From sequence record KX009778: a stretch of 64,000 nucleotides of DNA. The stretch is one strand, 5' to 3'. The stretch's first letter is position 1; the number at the start of each line of letters is the position of its first letter. The notes beneath the pieces were generated by a model, which was not told the origin of the DNA, searched no databases, and worked only from the letters and a program-made list of their open reading frames with translations. Source of the DNA: Escherichia phage UFV-AREG1. Of the stretch, positions 15,684 through 62,753 are shown piece after piece. A program made the position numbers and the translations under genes.

Positions 15684-15713
15684 ACTATAACACAATACGA
15701 GGGACTTGTAAAC
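15684..15713 (-). promoter_or_regulatory. Early sigma70-type promoter (GTTTACA-17-TATAGT)
   Basis: Minus-strand GTTTACA, 17-bp spacer, TATAGT upstream of ORF 15362..15652. Confidence 0.5.
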
Positions 15714-17770
15714 TACATTTTGAACTTTTTAGACATTCTGTTGATGTTAACCAAAGAAGCTAAGATTTGAGAAACTTCGCTTTCCTCTTCTTTTGATTCT
15801 TCTACAAGGAATTGATTAAATCCAGCCATTGGACGAACTTCACCAGTTTCCATCAGATGGTCGCCATCATATACTGATTCTTCTAATTGTTCAGAAGGAG
15901 GAACGATTGTACCTTCGATTAGATACTTATTATAAGCAGTTTCTTTCATCATGTACGTACTTACTTTATTAATCTTCAGTAAAATTCCACGTGGTAGAAT
16001 AACTTCAGCTTCTGATGGAAATCCTGATAAATGACCCGGAACGATAACTTTAACTCGTTCAGCTCCTTTAATTACCATACCTACATTAGTTTCAGCGTCT
16101 TCATTCGCATATGTAGAATGACTACCCATATGCATTAAATCTTCAGCATCAACTGAACCTTCTCCTTCACCAGAAAATACTGCTCCGGAATCATCTAAGG
16201 CCATATAATTTTTACCATATTCACCGAAGATATTTGGCTTGAGTGAAGTAGATACAAAGTTCTTGAAATAGAACATTTTATTTTCTATATTATGACGCAA
16301 AGTTTTAAAGGTAACTTCTTGCCCACGATAAAGAGTAGTTCCTGGAGGAAGAACTGAACCTTTAGAAAATGCAGAATCCAGCGTCTCAATATGTTTAATA
16401 GCTCGTTCCATATATTCTTCACGGGTAGAATCAGGTTTACCTAAAAGGAATGAGTTCATTTCAACATATGAATCTGCACAATAATCTTCAATTACATCAG
16501 ATTCAGCCTGAGTTAATCCTTTTGGAGTTACTTCAGTGCTTGCATATTCATATGCCTGAGCAGCAGATTCATCAATTAATTTATAAATTCCATTCATTAC
16601 AAATTGAATAATAGCTGTCTTTTCATCTGGTGTAGCTTTAGAACCTTTAACTAAATCATTGATAATTTTCTTAATAACATCAAAACTATTAGAAATATTA
16701 ATGTCAGCAAGATCGCTTAAAATTTTATCAGTTTTATAATCAAAGAATTCTTTATTCTTTAAATATTCTTGAGAACCTTGATATGTTATATCGCTCTGCA
16801 GCTTGATAGATGGATCGCGTAAACGTGCATGGGCCAATGCAATATGATTTCGGAAGCTTTCTAGTTCATAATCGCTAGATTTAAAACGAGAAGCACTTCT
16901 CATACCACCGATAGCTCCTTTGCTAAAGTTTGAACCAATCTGAATAACGCCAGAGTTCATTGATCCTTCTGCTTTATATACCGGAACTTTAGATTCAAAC
17001 TCTTGATATTTCTTAGCAGCGAAGCTATCACCCTGGAGTGAAGCGTCAACAGTAGAATATTGAGCTTGGGCTGCTAATCGACGACTGATTTTAGTTTTCT
17101 GAATAACAGCTTGATCCGTGCGCTTATCATTTTCTAAAGCAATAGAAGCAGCAACAGCAACAGCTTTAGGAACAGCATTACCTGTTTTAACGTCTACATA
17201 AACATCACCAACCTTTGATTCAACTTTTGTGAATAACTCGGTTGAAATAGGAGGTACACCTGGAATGTCTTCTAATTTGGCATTTTTACGGTAAACCATA
17301 ATATATGCGTACTTTTTATCATAATCCCAGATTTCCTTTAAAAGAACATATCGACCTGCTCCTTTAGTACGTACTAAACGGTCAGCAATAACTTGCATTT
17401 GCCGAGCAGCGCCATTTGTTTTACTTTTTAGTACGCGGAATAGGCATGCATCAATTTTATACTGTTTCATTGTTTGAAGAGCAGTATCAAAAACAGCATT
17501 AATGACGCCAATTGGATTTCCACCCAAGTTTTTAAGCTTAACTAATGATAGTTTCTCATTAACACCTATCATTACGATATGCATCATTTTGTCGCCTGGC
17601 TTAACGTTTTTATTCGTATCACCGCCAGAGGTGTATGTACAAAATCTAAATCCAGGAAGCACGCTTTCTTCACCTGCTTGAATAGCAAAAATTTGAGGTA
17701 TTTTATGCTTAGGATTTAAGTTAACAACCGGCGCCGAAGCGCCGTCAAATAATTCTGTAATAAGTTCCAT
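15713..17770 (-). CDS. Alt-family mono-ADP-ribosyltransferase paralogue (685 aa)
   Basis: N-terminus MELITELFD... homologous to adjacent alt; ART motifs YRGQ (Arg), FVSTSL (STS), EAEVILPRG (ExE). Confidence 0.85.
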   Translation of the reverse strand: MELITELFDGASAPVVNLNPKHKIPQIFAIQAGEESVLPGFRFCTYTSGGDTNKNVKPGDKMMHIVMIGVNEKLSLVKLKNLGGNPIGVINAVFDTALQTMKQYKIDACLFRVLKSKTNGAARQMQVIADRLVRTKGAGRYVLLKEIWDYDKKYAYIMVYRKNAKLEDIPGVPPISTELFTKVESKVGDVYVDVKTGNAVPKAVAVAASIALENDKRTDQAVIQKTKISRRLAAQAQYSTVDASLQGDSFAAKKYQEFESKVPVYKAEGSMNSGVIQIGSNFSKGAIGGMRSASRFKSSDYELESFRNHIALAHARLRDPSIKLQSDITYQGSQEYLKNKEFFDYKTDKILSDLADINISNSFDVIKKIINDLVKGSKATPDEKTAIIQFVMNGIYKLIDESAAQAYEYASTEVTPKGLTQAESDVIEDYCADSYVEMNSFLLGKPDSTREEYMERAIKHIETLDSAFSKGSVLPPGTTLYRGQEVTFKTLRHNIENKMFYFKNFVSTSLKPNIFGEYGKNYMALDDSGAVFSGEGEGSVDAEDLMHMGSHSTYANEDAETNVGMVIKGAERVKVIVPGHLSGFPSEAEVILPRGILLKINKVSTYMMKETAYNKYLIEGTIVPPSEQLEESVYDGDHLMETGEVRPMAGFNQFLVEESKEEESEVSQILASLVNINRMSKKFKM

Positions 17771-17773
17771 GAT

Positions 17774-19867
17774 TTATCCTTGAACGAACTTGTAAGGCAT
17801 GTTTGTAATATCTATGCAAGACGCAATAATTCCAAGAGATGATTCTACTTTCTGTTTAATATTTGATGAAACAAATGATGCAAAGTCAACTCTGTCTTCT
17901 ATTTCAATATCACCTGTCATTGCAACCAATTCACCAGTTTCCATTAAATGGTCTCCATCATAGATTACCGATTCGGTGAGCTCTTCCGTGGTCATAACTT
18001 CAGCTTGAATGAGTTTTGTATTATTAGATGTTGTTCCGTCATTATTAGAAGCATCGATTATTTTATTAACTTTGACCATCAATCCACGCGGTAGAATAAC
18101 TTCAGCTTCTGTTGCTATTCCGAGACTTCCTGGATATACAACATTAACTTTATGAGCTCCATCAATTGCCCATCCTATTTGAACTTTAACATATTCAGGA
18201 TTTTCTTTATACGCTCTTATTTCGTTTGGATTAATAGTTATTCCTTCTTCATTTTTATCAACTGTTAATTCATTGCGAGCTCCTGGTTCTAAAAGACCAA
18301 TACCAGCATGTGTGATTCCAAAACGTCCAAAAATGATAGGAGTTAAAGAAGTAGATACAAAATTTCTGAAGTAGAACACTTTATTTTTAACTAACGCTTC
18401 ATATATAGGAGCAGTCATACTTTGAGCACGATAAACTGTAATGCCTTCTGGTATACGGTCACCATTTTCAAAAGCTGAATCTAAGTTATTTATAGCAGAT
18501 TCAATTTCTTTTTCACTCATTACATCATATCGTTCTGGATTGTAACGACCTAAAAGAAGATTATTGATGTCAGTATATCCTGAACCGCAATATTCTCTAA
18601 TGCCACGCTTTTGTGATGGAGTATATTTAGAACCATCGCGGGCAATAGTAATATCAATCATTGGACCAGCACCAATTCCAGAAAAACTGTAAATCATTCG
18701 TTTGAGGAATTTAGTTTTTGCTGCGTTCCAGGAATTTTTAGTTATTTCTTCCCAGACTTCATCTGGTTGTCCTTTACGATTTTTATTATGATTAGCAAGC
18801 CATTTATCTTTATAATCTTCAAAGAATTGATTTACAGCTGCTGCGTATTTCTCTAAACATTTTATTGAAGTAGTTGGTTCATTTTTAATTGCATTAAAAA
18901 TTACTTCTTTAATTTTTTCTGAAACTTCACCGACTTGACTCATTGGAAAGAATTTATAATCATAGTGAAGTTCATCTGCCGTTCCTTCAGCAATAATTTT
19001 TGCTGCCTTTGTTTTAGAAGCTAATGAATTAATTCCAATTTTCATTTCTTCTGCTTCGGGAATTAAAGGTGCAGTAGCTGGTTTATTAAAATTAGCTGCT
19101 GTAGATTCATACTTCTGGAATAATTCACTTTCAAATCTAGAAGATTCCAATGACTGACTTTGTGCAATTGCTCTACGGGAAATTTTAACTTTAACGATTA
19201 CAGCTTGGTCAGAACGTTTATCATTTTCTTGCGCAATAGATGCTGCAATTGCTTCATTTTTAGTTACTTGAGCTCCAGTATCTTTATTGATATAAACATC
19301 ACCGACCTTCGATTCAACTTTAGTAAAGAGTTCAGTGCTAATTTCTGGAACTCCTGGAATGTCTTCTAGTGATACATTTTTGCGATGTATAAGAATATAT
19401 GCATACTTTTTATCATAATCCCAGAGTTCCTTAAGAAGGACGTATCTGCCACCTGAACGACTACGGATAAGTCTATCAGCAATAACTTGAATTTGTCGAG
19501 CTTGGCCAGCAGTTTTAGACTTAAGAATACGAAGCATACAAGCATCAATTTTATACTGACGCATTGTTTGCATTGCAACAGTAAAAACTGAATTGATATA
19601 ATTAATTGGGCTTGGCCCAAGACCTTTCAATTTAGCAATTGAACCTTTAGCAGTTAATGTAAAAGGAACAATATGCATCATTTTATCGCCCATCTTTAAA
19701 TCACGATTAGTATCACCTCCAGATGTATAGGTACATAAACGAAAGCCTGGTTGTTCAATTGCGTCATCGACATGAACTGAAAAAATTTGTGGTATCTTCT
19801 TCTTTGGATTTAAGTTTGTAATCGGAAGAGTAGTATCTTCGTCAAATAATTCTGTAATAAGTTCCAT
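17774..19867 (-). CDS. alt: Alt ADP-ribosyltransferase (packaged, injected ART; 697 aa)
   Basis: ART motifs YRAQ, FVSTSL, EAEVILPRG; adjacent to gene 30 as in T4; late promoter upstream. Confidence 0.85.
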   Translation of the reverse strand: MELITELFDEDTTLPITNLNPKKKIPQIFSVHVDDAIEQPGFRLCTYTSGGDTNRDLKMGDKMMHIVPFTLTAKGSIAKLKGLGPSPINYINSVFTVAMQTMRQYKIDACMLRILKSKTAGQARQIQVIADRLIRSRSGGRYVLLKELWDYDKKYAYILIHRKNVSLEDIPGVPEISTELFTKVESKVGDVYINKDTGAQVTKNEAIAASIAQENDKRSDQAVIVKVKISRRAIAQSQSLESSRFESELFQKYESTAANFNKPATAPLIPEAEEMKIGINSLASKTKAAKIIAEGTADELHYDYKFFPMSQVGEVSEKIKEVIFNAIKNEPTTSIKCLEKYAAAVNQFFEDYKDKWLANHNKNRKGQPDEVWEEITKNSWNAAKTKFLKRMIYSFSGIGAGPMIDITIARDGSKYTPSQKRGIREYCGSGYTDINNLLLGRYNPERYDVMSEKEIESAINNLDSAFENGDRIPEGITVYRAQSMTAPIYEALVKNKVFYFRNFVSTSLTPIIFGRFGITHAGIGLLEPGARNELTVDKNEEGITINPNEIRAYKENPEYVKVQIGWAIDGAHKVNVVYPGSLGIATEAEVILPRGLMVKVNKIIDASNNDGTTSNNTKLIQAEVMTTEELTESVIYDGDHLMETGELVAMTGDIEIEDRVDFASFVSSNIKQKVESSLGIIASCIDITNMPYKFVQG

Positions 19868-32634: not shown

Positions 32635-33813
32635 TTAAAAATATTTTTTAAAACTCATCATAACTTTATCATCAACATCATTATCAATCTGTGCAACAAG
32701 GTAAGATGACAGTTCTACTTCTTGCGGCGCGGATTGAACATTATCAGAATTAAGATATTCACGAATCCAAGGATATGGGTGTTTAACCGGAGCATCGGTA
32801 ATTGGGCATGGAAGACCACACTGTTTCATACGAGATACAGTTAAGTAATCAATAAAGCTCCACATGCTATTTGTATTTAATCCAGGAACATCGCCATCTT
32901 TAAATAAATGAACTGCCCAATCTTTTTCTTGGCGGTTAACTTCCATGAAAATATCAACTGCTTCTTGTTCACACTCTTGAGCAATTTTAACCCATTCATC
33001 GCCGTCAGTGCCAAGTTGAAGTTGACGAATAATATATTGGGTGCCTTTAAGGTGAAGCTGCTCATCACGTGCAATGAACTTCATAATCTTGGCATTACCT
33101 TCCATAATTTCCATGTTCTTATGGAAGTTAAAGGTACATGCGAAAGATACATAAAAACGAATAGCTTCCAATGCGTTGATTACATGCAAACAGAGGTAAA
33201 GAGATTTCATTAGCTCACGCTTCCAATATGTCTCATGCTCAATAGCATCTTCAATAACGTCTTCGTCTGCATTAATTTCTTTTTGGTATTCGATATCAGC
33301 TTTAGCGTTTTCCCAATAACGAGTTTTAATCAGAACATCATCATAATAACGTCCAATTGATTCAGCACGTTTCATAATAGCTTCATCTAATACAATCTCA
33401 TCAAACACCTTCGATGGATCAGTATAAAGATTTCGCATGATATGTGTATATGAACGGCTGTGAATAGTTTCACTAAAAGTCCACGTAGCAACCCATGTAT
33501 CAAGGCTTGGGTCTGAAATTAATGACATAAGTACAGCAGATGGCGCGCGACCCTGAATGCTATCCAAAAGTGATTGATACTTCAGGTTATTAGTAAAAAT
33601 ATTCTGCTGATACTGAGGAAGTTTATTAAATTGCGCAGCATCCATCATCAAGTTTACTTCTTCAGGACGCCAGAAAAATGATAATTGCTTTTCAGTCAAA
33701 TCTTCAAAAACTTTATGGCGTTGAATATCATAACGCGCAATACCAAGACCTGAACCGAAGAACATAGGTTCTTTTAAAACATCAACTGGATTTGTATTAA
33801 AAACTGTGCTCAT
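32635..33813 (-). CDS. nrdB: Ribonucleotide reductase small subunit NrdB, uninterrupted
   Basis: 392-aa continuous ORF with di-iron ferritin-like composition; no intron gap. Confidence 0.92.
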   Translation of the reverse strand: MSTVFNTNPVDVLKEPMFFGSGLGIARYDIQRHKVFEDLTEKQLSFFWRPEEVNLMMDAAQFNKLPQYQQNIFTNNLKYQSLLDSIQGRAPSAVLMSLISDPSLDTWVATWTFSETIHSRSYTHIMRNLYTDPSKVFDEIVLDEAIMKRAESIGRYYDDVLIKTRYWENAKADIEYQKEINADEDVIEDAIEHETYWKRELMKSLYLCLHVINALEAIRFYVSFACTFNFHKNMEIMEGNAKIMKFIARDEQLHLKGTQYIIRQLQLGTDGDEWVKIAQECEQEAVDIFMEVNRQEKDWAVHLFKDGDVPGLNTNSMWSFIDYLTVSRMKQCGLPCPITDAPVKHPYPWIREYLNSDNVQSAPQEVELSSYLVAQIDNDVDDKVMMSFKKYF

Positions 33814-33864: not shown

Positions 33865-34854
33865 TCATAATTTACAGGATGAACAATCTTCAGCTTTTGG
33901 AGTTTCTATTTCATAATCATCAGTACCAGAACCATCGCGGGTATTATGATAATAGAAATTTTTTCCACCAAAATACCAAAAATACAAAAGGTCATCAATC
34001 ATTATTGACATTGGAACCTTTCCTTTTGGAAAAATCTGCGGGTCATAGTATGTATTCGCCGAAGCTGATTGACATACCCATTTCAGCATAATAGCTACCT
34101 GCGTGAGATAAGGTTTATTACCTTTCTTAGCTAATTTCCATGTATAATCATAGAGGTCTATGTTATGCTCAATATTGGGCACGACTTGATTAAAGGAGCC
34201 CTCTTTTGATTCTTTAACAGAGACTGGTCCACGTGGAGGCTCGATACCGTTTGTACTGTTAGAAACTTGGGAAGATGACTCACATGGCATAAGTGCTGAT
34301 AATGTGCTATTACGGATGCCAAAGAGCTTAAGGTCTTCCCGCAGCGACGACCAGTCACAAACGTATTTTGGAGCTGCGATTTGGTCAATCTTTTTATTGT
34401 ACCAGTCGATAGGTAATTCGCCTCGAGACCAACGAGTGTCTGAATAATATTCGCAAGGTCCTTTTTCTTTGGCGAGCTTAATGGATGCTTTAATGAGTCC
34501 ATACTGTAATCTCTCAAATAGTTCATGTGTTAAATCGTTAGCATCTTCATAAGAAGCAAAGTTACTTGCCAGCCAAGCTGCATAGTTGGTAACACCTACA
34601 CCGAGGTTACGACGCTTTTTAGCTTTTTCTGCTTCAGGAACTGGATATCCTTGGTAATCCAACAGATTATCAAGAGCACGAACTTGAACTTCTGCCAATT
34701 CATTAATTTTATCTTGGTCTTGCCAGTCAAAATTATCCAGTACGAATGCAGAGAGAGTACAAAGGCCCACTTCACCTTTGTTTTCAATAACTTGTATTGT
34801 TGTATACTCATCATCTTCGTAAAATTCATCTACAAATTCATAATCAATATTCAT
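33865..34854 (-). CDS. nrdA: Ribonucleotide reductase large subunit, C-terminal fragment (nrdA-b)
   Basis: 329 aa; NrdA C-terminus incl. CTLSAF (E. coli C462 region) and C-terminal CxxxxC tail (EDCSSCKL); own ATG overlapping HNH stop. Confidence 0.85.
   Translation of the reverse strand: MNIDYEFVDEFYEDDEYTTIQVIENKGEVGLCTLSAFVLDNFDWQDQDKINELAEVQVRALDNLLDYQGYPVPEAEKAKKRRNLGVGVTNYAAWLASNFASYEDANDLTHELFERLQYGLIKASIKLAKEKGPCEYYSDTRWSRGELPIDWYNKKIDQIAAPKYVCDWSSLREDLKLFGIRNSTLSALMPCESSSQVSNSTNGIEPPRGPVSVKESKEGSFNQVVPNIEHNIDLYDYTWKLAKKGNKPYLTQVAIMLKWVCQSASANTYYDPQIFPKGKVPMSIMIDDLLYFWYFGGKNFYYHNTRDGSGTDDYEIETPKAEDCSSCKL
34649..34761. repeat. Direct repeat A, copy 1 (113 bp, inside nrdA-b)
   Basis: Identical to 35776..35888; encodes GLCTLSAFVLDNFDWQDQDKINELAEVQVRALDNLLDYQG. 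Confidence 0.85.
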
Positions 34855-35687
34855 TTAATTCTTCTACCTTTTTTCGAGATATTCCTAGAGCTTTAGATGC
34901 TCGATGTATTGATTGATATTCTATACCGTTTATTTTTACAGCAATTAAGTTATGGGGTTTTAATCCCTTTGGATGAGGTTTACTGACGTATTCTTGATTA
35001 TCGTTTTCAGAGATGTTATCAAGCTTTCGACACTTAAAGCCTTTATGTTGAGACCTTTTGCCTTTGCATACGGCCGACATTGCCGAAGCATTGAGTGAAT
35101 GTAGTTCGCAAAATTCTCTTAGGCCTTTATGGATTTCTTCATGACCGTCCGGGAAAGTAAATACCCAAGTTGTTTGAAGTTTTTCTCTATGCTCGTCAGT
35201 TACCGGAATACCTTTGTTCCAAGCTGGTTTGCCTTTATTATTTTCAGATACAGAAATAGCCAATTTTCTTCTAAGCCACCCATGGCGTTTATTGGTGTTC
35301 TTTCGTTCAATATTATCTTCAGAATAAACACACATCATATTAGCGGCAAATACCAATTTATGATTATCTGGATATATCTTTACTAATAATTGATGAGCTA
35401 TGTAATGCTCTTCGGGTGTCAAATCTACCAGGTTTTCCTTTGTATCAGAACCACCAATACACAGAGGTATAATATGGTGTGATTCGGTATAGCAATCTAA
35501 TTTTCTGTTCTTAGCTTTAGAAATAAGGTTATTGTAAATTTTAGAATAATCCATAACTTTTCCTCTTGTTATGGATTATTTATTAACGGACTGTGTACTT
35601 TATTTGCTTTGAATTATACCGCCAGGATTAGCTTCATAAAACTTAGCTACATCCGACTTCTTAATTTTGATTAAACGGGTTTGTTGG
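34762..35687 (-). mobile_element. HNH homing-endonuclease insertion cassette splitting nrdA
   Basis: About 0.9 kb between duplicated nrdA segments, containing the HNH ORF plus a new N-terminal extension for nrdA-b. Confidence 0.7.
34844..35554 (-). CDS. HNH homing endonuclease (Mob-like) inserted in nrdA
   Basis: 236 aa; HNH motif HHIIPLCIGG...NLVDLTPEEHYIAH; C-terminal NUMOD-like GISRKKV; paralogue of ORF 6115..6807. Confidence 0.85.
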   Translation of the reverse strand: MDYSKIYNNLISKAKNRKLDCYTESHHIIPLCIGGSDTKENLVDLTPEEHYIAHQLLVKIYPDNHKLVFAANMMCVYSEDNIERKNTNKRHGWLRRKLAISVSENNKGKPAWNKGIPVTDEHREKLQTTWVFTFPDGHEEIHKGLREFCELHSLNASAMSAVCKGKRSQHKGFKCRKLDNISENDNQEYVSKPHPKGLKPHNLIAVKINGIEYQSIHRASKALGISRKKVEELNEY

Positions 35688-35774
35688 CTATTCACATCAT
35701 TTGTTGGAATAGCAATTTCACAGCACAAGTTACTCTGACGAATAGGTGCCTTTTCACGAATAAACGGAGTATAG
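35688..35774. repeat. Direct repeat B, copy 1 (87 bp)
   Basis: Identical to 35911..35997; encodes YTPFIREKAPIRQSNLCCEIAIPTNDVNS. Confidence 0.85.
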
Positions 35775-37256
35775 ACCTTGGTAATCCAACAGATTATCAA
35801 GAGCACGAACTTGAACTTCTGCCAATTCATTAATTTTATCTTGGTCTTGCCAGTCAAAATTATCCAGTACGAATGCAGAGAGAGTACACAATCCAATTTC
35901 AGCATCAGGACTATTCACATCATTTGTTGGAATAGCAATTTCACAGCACAAGTTACTCTGACGAATAGGTGCCTTTTCACGAATAAACGGAGTATAGTTA
36001 TTCGTATTATCAATGAACTGCACATAAATCCTTGCTGTTCCTGAGCGTTCAGTCATGAGCAATTCAAATAGTTCACGGGCTTTAATACGCTTTTTACGAA
36101 TATTAGGGTCTTTTTCTGCTGCTTCGTATAATTCACGGAAACGGTCTTGGTCTTTAAAATAAGAATAATAAAGCTCGCCACCCATTTCATGTGGACTGAA
36201 CAAAGTAATATAATCGTTCTTTCCGAATCGTTCCATCATCAAATCATTCAGTTGAACACCATAATCCATATGACGAATGCGGTTTTCTTCTACGCCTTTG
36301 TTATTTTTCAAAACGAGAAGATTTTCAACTTCCAAATGCCAAATAGGATAATAAGCAGTAGCAGCGCCGCCACGAATTCCACCCTGTGAACATGATTTAA
36401 CTGCAGTCTGAAAATGTTTCCAAAAAGGAATAACACCAGTATGACGTACTTCACCCATGCCAATTTTAGAACCTTCAGCACGAATCATACCAACATTAAT
36501 ACCAATTCCAGCGCGTTTAGAGATATATTCAACAATTGAAGCGGAAGCCTTATTGATAGACTTCAATGAATCTCCTGCCTCAATAACGACGCATGAACTA
36601 AACTGCCGAGTTGGAGTACGACAGCCAGCCATAATAGGAGTTGGTAATGAAATCTGTCGAGTAGATACCGCTTCATAAAAACGAATAACGTGTTTTAATC
36701 TATCAACAGGTTCATCTTGATGCAATGCCATTCCAATAGTCATAAATGCAAACTGTGGAGTTTCATAAATTTGACCAGTGGTTTTATCTTTAACGAGATA
36801 TTTTTCTTTTAATTGCATCGCCCCGGAATAAGTAAATTCCATATCCCGCTCGTGCTTAATTTTTGATTCTAAAAATGTAATTTCTTCTGCTGAATATTTT
36901 GACAGCAGTTCAGGGTCATATTTACCTTCATTTACACAGTAAGAAATATGGTCAATAAATGAACGTGGTTCATATTGTCCGTAAACATGCTTACGAAGAG
37001 CAAACATTAAACAGCGTGCAGCTACATATTGATAATCAGGTTCTTCAACCGAAATAGAATTCGCAGCGGCCTTAATGACAATAGTCTGAATATCATCAGT
37101 GGTCATTCCATCACGGAGATATGATTTAATATTTTCATATAATTCATAAGGATCTACAGATGTTCCTTCAGCTGCCCAAGATAAAACTTTAATAATTTTT
37201 TGTGGGTCAAAGCTCTGAGAAACACCACTACTTTTGATAACATTAATTAATTGCAT
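35754..37256 (-). CDS. nrdA: Ribonucleotide reductase large subunit, N-terminal fragment (nrdA-a)
   Basis: 500 aa; N-terminal ATP-cone and catalytic core incl. NLCCEIAIP (E. coli N437/C439/E441 equivalent); ends 6 codons after repeat A. Confidence 0.85.
   Translation of the reverse strand: MQLINVIKSSGVSQSFDPQKIIKVLSWAAEGTSVDPYELYENIKSYLRDGMTTDDIQTIVIKAAANSISVEEPDYQYVAARCLMFALRKHVYGQYEPRSFIDHISYCVNEGKYDPELLSKYSAEEITFLESKIKHERDMEFTYSGAMQLKEKYLVKDKTTGQIYETPQFAFMTIGMALHQDEPVDRLKHVIRFYEAVSTRQISLPTPIMAGCRTPTRQFSSCVVIEAGDSLKSINKASASIVEYISKRAGIGINVGMIRAEGSKIGMGEVRHTGVIPFWKHFQTAVKSCSQGGIRGGAATAYYPIWHLEVENLLVLKNNKGVEENRIRHMDYGVQLNDLMMERFGKNDYITLFSPHEMGGELYYSYFKDQDRFRELYEAAEKDPNIRKKRIKARELFELLMTERSGTARIYVQFIDNTNNYTPFIREKAPIRQSNLCCEIAIPTNDVNSPDAEIGLCTLSAFVLDNFDWQDQDKINELAEVQVRALDNLLDYQGLYSVYS
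35776..35888. repeat. Direct repeat A, copy 2 (113 bp, inside nrdA-a)
   Basis: Identical to 34649..34761. Confidence 0.85.
35911..35997. repeat. Direct repeat B, copy 2 (87 bp, inside nrdA-a)
   Basis: Identical to 35688..35774. Confidence 0.85.
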
Positions 37257-37573: not shown

Positions 37574-37790
37574 ATTGTTTTTCCGTTAATACAGTAATAT
37601 CATAGTAACAATCTGAAGAAGTTTTAACTGTGGAAATTTTATTATCAAAATACTCACGAGTCATTTTATGAGTATAATATTTTTTACCATAAATGATAAT
37701 AGGCTGTTCTGGTCCTGGAACTTCTAACTCGCTTGGGTTAGGAAGTGTAAAAAGAACAACGCCAGAAGTATCTTTAAATCGTAAAATCAT
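37527..37790 (-). CDS. Hypothetical protein, nrdA.2-like
   Basis: 87-aa ORF; start overlaps td stop. Confidence 0.45.
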
Positions 37791-38647
37791 ATTGCCATTT
37801 TCCCTTTAATTGCCGGATGCGATTCATAATTTTCAAGGATAAAATCTTTCGGTTTCATGTATTCAGTTAACCAGTAAAGCTGTGTTTCGGTGTCACAATT
37901 TTCAAACTCTATAGGCCAATCAATTTTAAGTTCGCACAGTTCTTTAGGCTCACGACGTAAAATTTCTTTACATTGTTCTACGTGATTCATATAGATATGA
38001 GTATTACCACCAGAAAATATCAAATCTCCTGGGATAAGATTACACATCTTAGCCATAATATGCGTCAAGGCAGCGTACGAGGCAATGTTGAATGGCAAGC
38101 CCAAGAAAACATCTACACTTCTTTGGTACCACTGTAAATCAAGATAACCATTACGCACATTAAACTGATAGAACATATGACAGGGTGGTAATGCCATTTG
38201 ATTGATTTCAGCTGGATTCCATGCTGAAACGATTTGACGTCGATCAGTTGGTAATTTTTTAATACGATCAATAGTTTCAACTAATTGATCCACACCACCG
38301 AAATCACGCCATTGTTTACCATATATAGGACCCAGTTCACCACTATGATATCCTAGGTCTTTAGCTTGGTTTTCATAATTGTCATCCCAGATAGTTTTAC
38401 CTTGAATAAGACTACCGTGAGTAAGAAGACGTAAATCATTAACATTGGTAGAACCGGAAATAAACCATAAAAGCTCAGCAATGCATGCATTCCAGGCGAG
38501 CTTCTTAGTTGTTACTGCAGGAAAACCTTTACTTAAATCCCAGCGTAATTTAGTACCGAACAAAGCAATTGTTCCTGTGCCCGTTCGGTCATCGGTTTCA
38601 TAGCCATTTTCAAAAATGTCTTTAATTAAATCTTGGTATTGTTTCAT
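37787..38647 (-). CDS. td: Thymidylate synthase, intron-less
   Basis: 286-aa continuous ORF; active-site [10 protein letters not shown]; full T4 TS length without the intron. Confidence 0.95.
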
Positions 38648-40831: not shown

Positions 40832-40874
40832 ATTATTTTCCTCTTTAATTATCAGCAGTATTGCCGATAGTTGT

Positions 40875-40904
40875 ATAGTACCACATTATGCTTTGGTTGT
40901 AAAC
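40875..40904 (-). promoter_or_regulatory. Conserved early promoter module (GTTTACA-17-TACTAT)
   Basis: One of four near-identical ~70-bp elements (also near 58130, 61426, 62150). Confidence 0.5.
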
Positions 40905-40921
40905 AGTTTTGTGAAAAATTT

Positions 40922-40953
40922 TTAAAATAAAAAAGGGGACCCTAGAGGTCCCC
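40922..40953 (-). terminator. Rho-independent terminator downstream of gene 32
   Basis: Hairpin ggggacc-ctaga-ggtcccc followed by T-run on minus strand. Confidence 0.65.
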
Positions 40954-40975
40954 AATTAATTAGTAATATAATCTA

Positions 40976-58088: not shown

Positions 58089-58129
58089 TTTCTAATCTCC
58101 GTAATTCTGTATCAGTAGTTGATAGTTGT

Positions 58130-58159
58130 ATAGTACCACAGTATGCTTTGGTTGTAAAC
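58130..58159 (-). promoter_or_regulatory. Conserved early promoter module upstream of motA
   Basis: GTTTACA-17-TACTAT on minus strand; near-identical to elements at 40875, 61426, 62150. Confidence 0.55.
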
Positions 58160-58180
58160 CGTTTTGTGAAAAAATTTTTG

Positions 58181-58208
58181 AAATAAAAAAGGGGAGCCGA
58201 AGCTCCCC
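58181..58208 (-). terminator. Rho-independent terminator upstream of motA promoter
   Basis: Hairpin ggggagc-cgaa-gctcccc followed by T-run on minus strand. Confidence 0.6.
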
Positions 58209-58210
58209 AA

Positions 58211-61297: not shown

Positions 61298-61397
61298 AGT
61301 AAGCGTTTAATACATCAATCATTAAAACGATTGGGAATATACTCAAAACTACTAGTATTATAACTACATTCCATATAGCTTTAACAATCTTTTTCAT
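61284..61397 (-). CDS. Small membrane protein (37 aa from internal Met)
   Basis: ORF-track ORF 61284..61493 runs through the promoter; real start likely MKKIVKAIW. Confidence 0.4.
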   Translation of the reverse strand: MKKIVKAIWNVVIILVVLSIFPIVLMIDVLNAYFGFM

Positions 61398-61425
61398 TTT
61401 CTGTTCCTCCGTAGTTGATAGTTGT

Positions 61426-61455
61426 ATAGTACCACAGAGGAACAGTCTTGTAAAC
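61426..61455 (-). promoter_or_regulatory. Conserved early promoter module
   Basis: GTTTACA-17-TACTAT; 9-bp inverted repeat ctgttcctc/gaggaacag flanks the -10. Confidence 0.45.
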
Positions 61456-62115: not shown

Positions 62116-62149
62116 TTTATTCTCCAAATCCGTATCAGTTGATAGTTGT

Positions 62150-62179
62150 ATAGTACCACAGTCCTTGTGGTATGTAAAC
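62150..62179 (-). promoter_or_regulatory. Conserved early promoter module
   Basis: GTTTACA-17-TACTAT. Confidence 0.45.
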
Positions 62180-62195
62180 CGTTTTGTGAAAATTT

Positions 62196-62753
62196 TTAAA
62201 TGGAAAGATACCATCCGTTGTAGTTGCTTTTTCTTACAACTTTACGAAGGTCTTCTTTATCACCGATGAACTTCGGAGTGTACTGGATGACACCTGGATG
62301 AATTTCTTTAGTGTTGAATATAATTATACAGTCAGCGACCTGATGATTCAGAATGGGCCCTAGATTTATTCCAGAACCGTATGGATACTCTCCGCTGCAT
62401 CCGGTTGTTACCGAAATCCAGCGTGAGTCAGTTTGGTGTGTTTTGACTTCTACACGAAGCCCGCAATATCTTGGATGCGCCAATACATCCCATGCGTATG
62501 TATACGGGTCATTAACATCCTCTTGGCCTTTGTTAACATACCCGCTCAGCCAATCTGCTACAAAAAACTCTGCATACACAGCGATACGGCATCTTTCGAT
62601 GACTTCTGCTTTATCCTGATTAGGATTTTGTTTTAAAGAGTATCTTGCTGTATCAGCAATTTTGACCTTCATTTCACTAGTCAAGTCATTGTTCGATAGG
62701 GTAAATGTCGGAATCTGAAATAGTCTCTGTAAACCCGGATTCGTTTTCTGCAT
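62196..62753 (-). CDS. denB: Endonuclease IV
   Basis: 185 aa; synteny between ndd cluster and rIIB. Confidence 0.8.
   Translation of the reverse strand: MQKTNPGLQRLFQIPTFTLSNNDLTSEMKVKIADTARYSLKQNPNQDKAEVIERCRIAVYAEFFVADWLSGYVNKGQEDVNDPYTYAWDVLAHPRYCGLRVEVKTHQTDSRWISVTTGCSGEYPYGSGINLGPILNHQVADCIIIFNTKEIHPGVIQYTPKFIGDKEDLRKVVRKSNYNGWYLSI

Follow-up and report, generated by a model that had tools for sequence, protein, structure and literature searches.

We have analysed a stretch of 64,000 nucleotides (nt) from the genome of Escherichia phage UFV-AREG1 (sequence record KX009778), hereafter the window, in which nrdA, encoding the large subunit of class Ia ribonucleotide reductase (RNR), is split by an open reading frame (ORF) of 236 codons. 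With good but not full confidence, we regard the best overall explanation to be that this ORF is the MobE-type nuclease gene of a free-standing cassette lodged in the active-site region of nrdA, of the kind worked out in phage Aeh1. The same site also carries a 223-base-pair (bp) direct repeat, which is taken up below. The features that define the cassette are as follows, with lengths in amino acids (aa) and isoelectric points given as pI.

34844..35554, minus strand: mobE-type HNH homing endonuclease ORF, 236 aa, ATG start, with HNH at residues 1 to ~75, a NUMOD-like module at 135-173 and a putative C-terminal helix-turn-helix at ~205-233
34762..35687, minus strand: mobile cassette, 926 bp, in place of the 22-nt spacer of intact nrdA (from the A-to-B gap compared among alleles)
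35600..35687, minus strand: codons of a basic NrdA-a tail, QQTRLIKIKKSDVAKFYEANPGGIIQSK and stop, pI 10.0, out of frame with nrdA-a in the window
33865..34854, minus strand: nrdA-b, 329 aa, with the acidic leader MNIDYEFVDEFYEDDEYTTIQVIENKGEV (34768-34854, pI 4.05) (from the ORF list, Pfam and alignment)

A first-pass annotation, made without database searches, had described a 236-aa ORF with an HNH motif and a C-terminal ALGISRKKVEELNEY, and the ORF list and the sequence bear this out: the quoted motif HHIIPLCIGGSD...NLVDLTPEEHYIAH spans residues 26-54, ALGISRKKVEELNEY lies at the C-terminus, and the ORF runs on the minus strand, which had been left unstated. The ORF is not a chance one, given its matches to phrog_655 'homing endonuclease' (2.8e-60 in a PHROG profile search) and to PF22083, the Pfam family I-HmuI_NUMOD-like (32.2 bits against a gathering score of 27), and its 100% protein identity to the homing endonuclease annotated in phage HY01. 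Because the PF22083 match covers residues 135-173, the NUMOD-like module that the annotation had assigned to the C-terminus is present but sits in the middle of the protein. The His and Asn residues on which the earlier prediction hung are retained on closer alignment with 22 homologues, H26 and H27 being invariant and N41, H50 and H54 conserved in at least 90%, and the motif aligns with the HNH motif of McrA in a PDB sequence search whose matches are weak overall. In the AlphaFold model (predicted local distance difference test score, pLDDT, 88), strands at 24-27 and 42-45 followed by a helix at 47-60 form a beta-beta-alpha core, and the C-terminus folds as a small beta hairpin followed by helices at 216-223 and 227-233. 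PF20987, I-TevI_DNA-bd, matches weakly (16.3 bits, under its cutoff of 27). The structural matches of this model are I-HmuI, which ranks first, and the HNH domains of AcrVA3, Cas8-HNH and GVE2; the Foldseek alignment to I-HmuI runs over 173 columns, against a chain of 174 residues. With the conserved catalytic residues, the structural match to I-HmuI and the homology to Aeh1 MobE, the earlier description of an I-HmuI/MobE-type homing endonuclease splitting nrdA holds, and the protein is, by its sequence and model, a predicted HNH homing endonuclease of the MobE (Aeh1) type.

Several results weigh against that assignment. Pfam HNH (PF01844) scores 17.9 bits, under its gathering score of 21.4 (E 0.0035), in a subfamily that does not have the zinc-binding Cys pairs; a search of NCBIfam with the protein gave no match; and in-vitro activity was never obtained for MobE of either T4 or Aeh1 (PMC2790892).

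The extent of the cassette follows from comparison of alleles: the gap between the nrdA segments here called A and B, on either side of the insertion site, is 926 nt in 16 split alleles and 22 nt in three intact ones. It contains, in order, tail codons, a hairpin with a Shine-Dalgarno (SD) sequence, the endonuclease gene and leader codons. The insertion falls between the codons for ...NLCCEIAIPTNDVNS and ...GLCTLSAF in the active-site region, and alignments with homologues show it flanked by the active-site segments NLC(C)EIA and CTLSAF. The downstream half, nrdA-b, encodes the large subunit's C-terminal portion (PF02867, profile positions 219-523), and its ATG overlaps the nuclease stop codon by 11 nt (34844-34854), just as the first reading had it. 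An Rfam search of all 64 kb gives no family at or above its gathering score, and Pfam finds no intein domain in either NrdA half; an origin of the cassette as a group I intron or as an intein is thus rejected, and the nuclease gene is free-standing.

In Aeh1, mobE splits nrdA between active-site cysteines and overlaps nrdA-b; the two tails that it brings (pI 10.4 and 3.8) are essential, their deletion costing ~2000-fold in activity, and had no database matches as reported in 2010 (PMC3045599). The NrdA-a tail and NrdA-b leader of the window align with those of Aeh1 and of four metagenomic lineages. Homology with Aeh1 and T4 suggests that the nuclease nicks or cuts cassette-free nrdA in a mixed infection and that recombinational repair then copies the cassette in. 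The cassette supplies codons for a basic tail of NrdA-a, an HNH/I-HmuI-like nuclease gene and codons for an acidic leader of NrdA-b, and the oppositely charged tails would allow the NrdA halves to reassemble, leaving the insertion nearly neutral. The nuclease gene itself adds little, as a further copy of a selfish element worked out in Aeh1. That the tails are conserved along with the nuclease, in T4-like phages of Aeromonas and Escherichia and in metagenomic ones, goes beyond the literature that could be searched, and supports the view that cassette-borne tails travel with the element as its 'antidote'.

Expression of the nuclease and of nrdA-b

From the stop of the NrdA-a tail to the ATG of the nuclease there are 45 nt, the region of a hairpin and of a sequence resembling a T4 late promoter.

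35545..35580, minus strand: RNA hairpin with a 13-bp perfect stem, AAUAAUCCAUAAC / GUUAUGGAUUAUU (from folding and RNAalifold)
35577..35584, minus strand: AATAAATA, a T4 late-promoter-like box that shares bases with the hairpin's 5' arm

The loop (35558-35567, AAGAGGAAAA) contains the SD sequence and the 3' arm contains the AUG of the nuclease (35554-35552). The hairpin has a z-score of -3.85, with none of 200 shuffles folding as well, and RNAalifold over six lineages returns 13 pairs, three of them with compensatory double changes and only the terminal one ever broken; the compensatory changes follow codon 2 of the nuclease, which is GAU, GAC or AAC. A nuclease start placed under a covarying hairpin that is fused to a late-promoter box is likewise beyond what the searchable literature describes.

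In the scheme described for I-TevI, segB and Aeh1 mobE, a hairpin blocks translation of early and middle read-through transcripts, and late transcripts, which start inside it, are translatable (PMC2988022). The hairpin of the window is predicted to repress translation of the nuclease in the same manner: by burying the AUG it would hold off translation from early and middle read-through transcripts, and late transcripts arising from the box in its 5' arm would relieve the repression. The box has the exact sequence TATAAATA in the orthologous loci L005, L007 and L018, and a late-promoter function is suggested for it by the T4 late consensus and by the I-TevI paradigm (PMC2988022). It must be set against this scheme that the box of the window is one base off the consensus, and that the Aeh1 hairpin pairs with the SD sequence whereas the hairpin here buries the AUG and overlaps the late-promoter-like box. 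A scan for sigma-70 promoters and terminators gave counts at the shuffle expectation and is uninformative for a T4-type phage.

It had been proposed from the overlap of the two genes that nrdA-b is translated by coupling to, or re-initiation after, the nuclease ORF. We consider this unlikely. In its favour are the overlap itself, which orthologues also have (14 nt in Aeh1), and the position of the best SD-like run, AAGGT, at 13-17 nt before the nrdA-b ATG, beyond the optimal distance, with only a weak GAAG lying closer. The nuclease AUG, on the other hand, is sequestered in a conserved, covarying hairpin, and little of a nuclease of this type is translated before the late phase (PMC2988022). 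RNR, by contrast, is an early function that calls for equal amounts of NrdA-a and NrdA-b, which argues against a dependence of nrdA-b on nuclease translation. In Aeh1, NrdA-b is translated independently while MobE is repressed (PMC3045599), and in all of the lineages compared the nrdA-b ATG has purine-rich, SD-like runs ahead of it. As it was put, the proposal is not supported, and nrdA-b would more probably be started from its own ribosome-binding region than by obligatory coupling.

A 223-bp repeat within nrdA-a

All relatives with the split gene match this region over 3278 bp as compared to the 3501 bp present here, and the extra 223 bp constitute a direct repeat. In the sense of the gene the order is nrdA...A - x - B - filler T - A' - tail - hairpin - HNH ORF - leader - B' - rest of nrdA. 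The repeat and its filler base were overlooked in the first-pass annotation; because A and B each occur twice, nrdA-a is not the normal half-gene of 477 aa here.

35911..35997, minus strand: repeat A, upstream copy in the intact segment, 87 nt, codons YTPFIREKAPIRQSNLCCEIAIPTNDVNS (from a repeat search)
35889..35910, minus strand: intact-allele spacer x, 22 nt, TCCTGATGCTGAAATTGGATTG, codons (S)PDAEIGL, the uninterrupted insertion site (from repeat comparison)
35776..35888, minus strand: repeat B, 113 nt, codons CTLSAF...LLDYQG, after the intact spacer (from a repeat search)
35775: single filler base, T in the gene sense (A on the plus strand), at the homology-free junction B/A' (from sequence inspection)
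35688..35774, minus strand: repeat A', 87 nt, a 100% match to A, fused to the cassette tail (from a repeat search)
34649..34761, minus strand: repeat B', 113 nt, a 100% match to B, with which the conserved part of nrdA-b begins (from a repeat search)
35754..37256, minus strand: aberrant nrdA-a' ORF, 500 aa, NrdA residues 1-494 (to ...DYQG) followed by LYSVYS and a stop, without the basic tail (from the ORF list and translation)

A/A' and B/B' are the sole long perfect repeats in the 64 kb. In two-piece alignments the A-x-B segment is 100% identical to nrdA of T4 and T2, and the alignments of relatives break exactly at 35774/35911. The junction B/A' reads GATTACCAAGG-T-CTATACTCC. As the intact site in A-x-B stands upstream of the copy that bears the cassette, the recipient and donor alleles are present in cis. 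The repeat unit of 222 nt (74 codons) and the filler together make 223 nt, so that nrdA-a is frameshifted at the junction: the tail codons lie one frame (+1) away from the ORF of 500 aa, which ends in an acidic segment (pI 4.05) in place of the basic tail that is no longer attached to NrdA-a. By analogy with the tail deletions in Aeh1, the loss of the basic tail probably leaves the split RNR of this genome defective or impaired. T4 nrd mutants are viable on hosts that have an RNR of their own, and an impaired RNR is not necessarily lethal.

A single homologous exchange can resolve the duplication to either allele. When A and A' are exchanged in silico (-223 bp), a canonical split gene results, with an NrdA-a of 477 aa that agrees with REP3 over its last 60 residues; exchange of B and B' (-1127 bp) restores an intact NrdA of 754 aa, 745 of them identical to T4. 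Removal of the filler base alone gives an in-frame protein of 551 aa. A programmed frameshift that rescues the tail would have to be a +1 shift at GGT-CTA-TAC, where inspection finds no slippery or stimulatory feature, and is unlikely. The 101-aa ORF at 35600-35905, which reads the frame of the tail, begins at an internal ATG without an SD sequence, and its homologues are limited to the nrdA-derived part.

We give an even chance to the reading that the duplication is a real molecule, formed when a cassette-free genome and a cassette-bearing one recently underwent an unequal exchange independent of homology, i.e., a 'duplication heterozygote'. That T-even phages form tandem duplications and that homing sites are hot spots of recombination both speak for such a molecule. 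[quoted passage not shown] Possible routes are the joining of an A'-cassette-B' amplicon or contig to a reference-like intact A-x-B, or a chimeric molecule, as from a mixed lysate.

Much of the evidence weighs against a natural origin and, for the most part, in favour of the chimera. The junction, sought as GATTACCAAGG-T-CTATACTCCGTT, is absent from 50,697 phage records, which give two-piece matches only, and also from IMG/VR, GTDB genomes and JGI metagenomes; a looser pattern, with the NLCCEIA codons occurring twice within 190-220 nt, has no match in the collections searched, and the public gene index lacks both junction products, of 500 aa and 101 aa. NrdA-a is normal (474/477 aa) in 14 of the 14 inspected contigs that carry an identical HNH or NrdA-b protein. 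The two copies of each repeat show no difference (100% identity), even though relatives diverge by 1-8% in these segments. There is no microhomology at the junction, and the filler A, at the 3' end of the plus-strand block CCTTGG...AGTATAG, is such as an amplicon end A-tailed by Taq would leave. A conserved gene is disrupted, and the duplication should be genetically unstable and yield a probably defective enzyme.

Against the chimera it may be said that overlap and k-mer assemblers would need reads containing the homology-free junction in order to create it, that a filler matching A-tailing is a one-in-four coincidence, that natural split alleles with the same A'/B' variants exist (locus L022), and that the surrounding 24 kb is free of scattered frameshift indels and of signs of poor assembly. 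A generally poor assembly can be rejected as an explanation, the indels found over 24 kb against phage PTE-Eco15 being compensating or lying in divergent or intergenic stretches. None of the collections searched holds a near-identical parent genome, and since the flanks are mosaic, single-nucleotide polymorphisms gave no information on which parent each side of the junction came from.

A more specific reading, which we regard as rather unlikely, is that the repeat is a real, trapped by-product of homing: the nuclease would have broken a cassette-free nrdA, and the broken end would have been fused, with no homology, to a genome that bears the cassette. It is very unlikely that the duplication came first, with intact nrdA duplicated in tandem over 223 bp and the cassette homing later into the downstream copy only: the A and B copies are indeed identical and of T4 type, and the target in the upstream copy has stayed uninterrupted, but two rare events are needed, an active nuclease should have converted the second target copy, and homing normally co-converts flanks, whereas the donor-type cluster found in the B' of most cassette alleles is not seen here.

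If the heteroallelic duplication is real, it would capture an illegitimate event at a homing site, of a kind seldom caught, and could be used to ask whether an intact target is left alone by a nuclease encoded in the same genome. Were it a trapped by-product, its junction positions would report where MobE-type enzymes break nrdA, and it would provide a natural cis test of self-immunity and of the gain and loss of split-gene cassettes. If it is an artefact, the public record mis-states nrdA-a.

Distribution, homing and genome context

About 30 phage records, from Tequatroviruses, carry a copy of the nuclease gene at 80% identity or higher, and 58 indexed blocks in the public collection of assemblies contain its exact sequence. 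The carriers include HY01, REP2/REP3, PEC04, e11/2 (= vB_EcoM_112), RPN226, fPS-2, fPS-90 and PTE-Eco15, among others, and the copy in e11/2 is already annotated as 'MobE'. In view of these records and of the identity to HY01, both the nuclease gene and the genes-in-pieces arrangement of nrdA are already known. The DNA of the cassette differs from that of REP3, HY01 and RPN226 by 0-2 mismatches per 100 nt. The more distant homologues whose surroundings were inspected, at 51-67% identity and eight loci, are all arranged nrdA-a|HNH|nrdA-b, with nrdA-a at 474-485 aa and nrdA-b at 324-328 aa, apart from loci at contig ends and one nrdA-a of 614 aa. This last belongs to a metagenomic contig (L018:607-4187, ENA ERZ14207129 NODE_16), where the 614-aa nrdA-a contains a PT-HINT/intein domain and is followed by the same HNH cassette and nrdA-b; judging from these domains, L018 appears to hold two different selfish elements in one RNR gene. 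Within the nuclease, the NUMOD-like middle module (window 35000-35199, residues ~119-185) is 27-30% diverged from PTE-Eco15, e11/2 and 236Ecol005PP and 0-2% diverged from REP3, HY01 and RPN226, the rest of the ORF differing by no more than 6% in all of them, which suggests that two allelic DNA-binding modules may have been exchanged within one homing endonuclease gene.

The near-identical cassette is found in mosaic, differently related flanks, which lends indirect support to its putative preferential inheritance, or homing. The earlier suggestion that the intact nrdA active-site sequence is the cleavage target is a reasonable guess and must stay one, since T4 MobE makes a strand-specific nick in nrdB at nt 122-126, well away from its own insertion site (PMC2790892). 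Most of the cassette-bearing alleles (loci L009, L010, L012, L013 and L019-L027) are densely marked by silent changes over the ~36 nt immediately 3' of the cassette, in the codons CTLSAFVLDNFDW, equivalent to window 34726-34761. In the UFV-AREG1 window, REP3 and e11/2 these codons have the T4-type sequence. The cluster may represent a co-conversion tract or a polymorphism conferring resistance to cleavage.

The window is ~95-96% identical over 24 kb to Tequatroviruses including PTE-Eco15, HY01 and PEC04, and the genes around the cassette follow the order of T4: RNA ligase 1, a denA-like GIY-YIG gene, nrdB, nrdA, DUF4326, DUF5496 and td, the two small DUF ORFs being nrdA.1 and nrdA.2 in the T4T annotation. 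Both nrdB (392 aa, 32635-33813, minus strand) and td (286 aa, 37787-38647, minus strand) are uninterrupted, unlike those of T4. Elsewhere, two adjacent paralogous ORFs of 685 and 697 aa (15713-19867, minus strand), each with an Alt-like ADP-ribosyltransferase exoenzyme domain, account for diverged direct repeats spaced ~2094 nt apart. An intergenic element of 60-90 nt that starts GATAGTTGTATAGTACCACA is repeated at 40866-40955, 58121-58210, 62141-62230 and 61377-61437; two copies end in a GC-rich hairpin followed by A/T runs, and the element looks like a candidate promoter/terminator module.

Comparison with known split genes and homing nucleases

The sequenced Tequatrovirus carriers share the order td - nrdA.2 - nrdA.1 - nrdA-a - HNH - nrdA-b - nrdB - denA, with an NrdA-a of 477 aa (or 474) that ends in the basic tail, and their region is 223 bp shorter; unlike UFV-AREG1, none of those compared has the intact A-x-B segment or the junction. 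Resemblance to the HNH nicking endonuclease I-HmuI of Bacillus phage SPO1 (PDB 1U3E) amounts to only 18-19% identity, and I-HmuI is encoded in an intron whereas the nuclease gene of UFV-AREG1 is free-standing. The two elements of I-TevI-type control, a hairpin over the initiation region and a late box so placed that late transcripts omit the 5' arm, are both matched here computationally.

MobE of T4 is likewise free-standing in the nrd cluster, and it and the nuclease of UFV-AREG1 presumably both act by a site-specific nick or break. Their HNH halves are 46% identical over 127 aa at the N-terminus, but the C-terminal, DNA-binding half of T4 MobE is unrelated, and its gene lies in the intergenic region between nrdA and nrdB, whereas the 51-nt gap between nrdA-b and nrdB in UFV-AREG1 holds no gene. 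With residues 1-126 alone aligning and the location differing, T4 MobE was rejected as the orthologue in preference to MobE of Aeh1.

The likeness to Aeh1 MobE, by comparison, is full-length (48% identity over 229 aa, E 3e-61, 237 versus 236 aa) and extends to the whole arrangement. The insertion point is the same, between the two active-site Cys regions (in NrdA-b, Cys-31 in Aeh1 and Cys-32 in UFV-AREG1). The basic tails are homologous (LIKIKKSDV-KFY versus LFKVKKSEVDKF), as are the acidic leaders (YEFVDEFYEDDEYTT versus HERIYEVYEDEEYTT); the nuclease stop overlaps the nrdA-b start by 14 nt in Aeh1 and by 11 nt in UFV-AREG1, and a hairpin blocks initiation of nuclease translation in Aeh1 and is predicted to do so in UFV-AREG1. 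The differences are that Aeh1 is a Cinqassovirus, whereas UFV-AREG1 is a Tequatrovirus with nrdA in the T4 position beside td and nrdB, and that in UFV-AREG1, unlike Aeh1, the extra 223-bp repeat parts NrdA-a from its tail. Taken together, the full-length homology of the nucleases, the homologous tails and the identical split of nrdA identify the element as that described by Crona et al. (PMC3045599).

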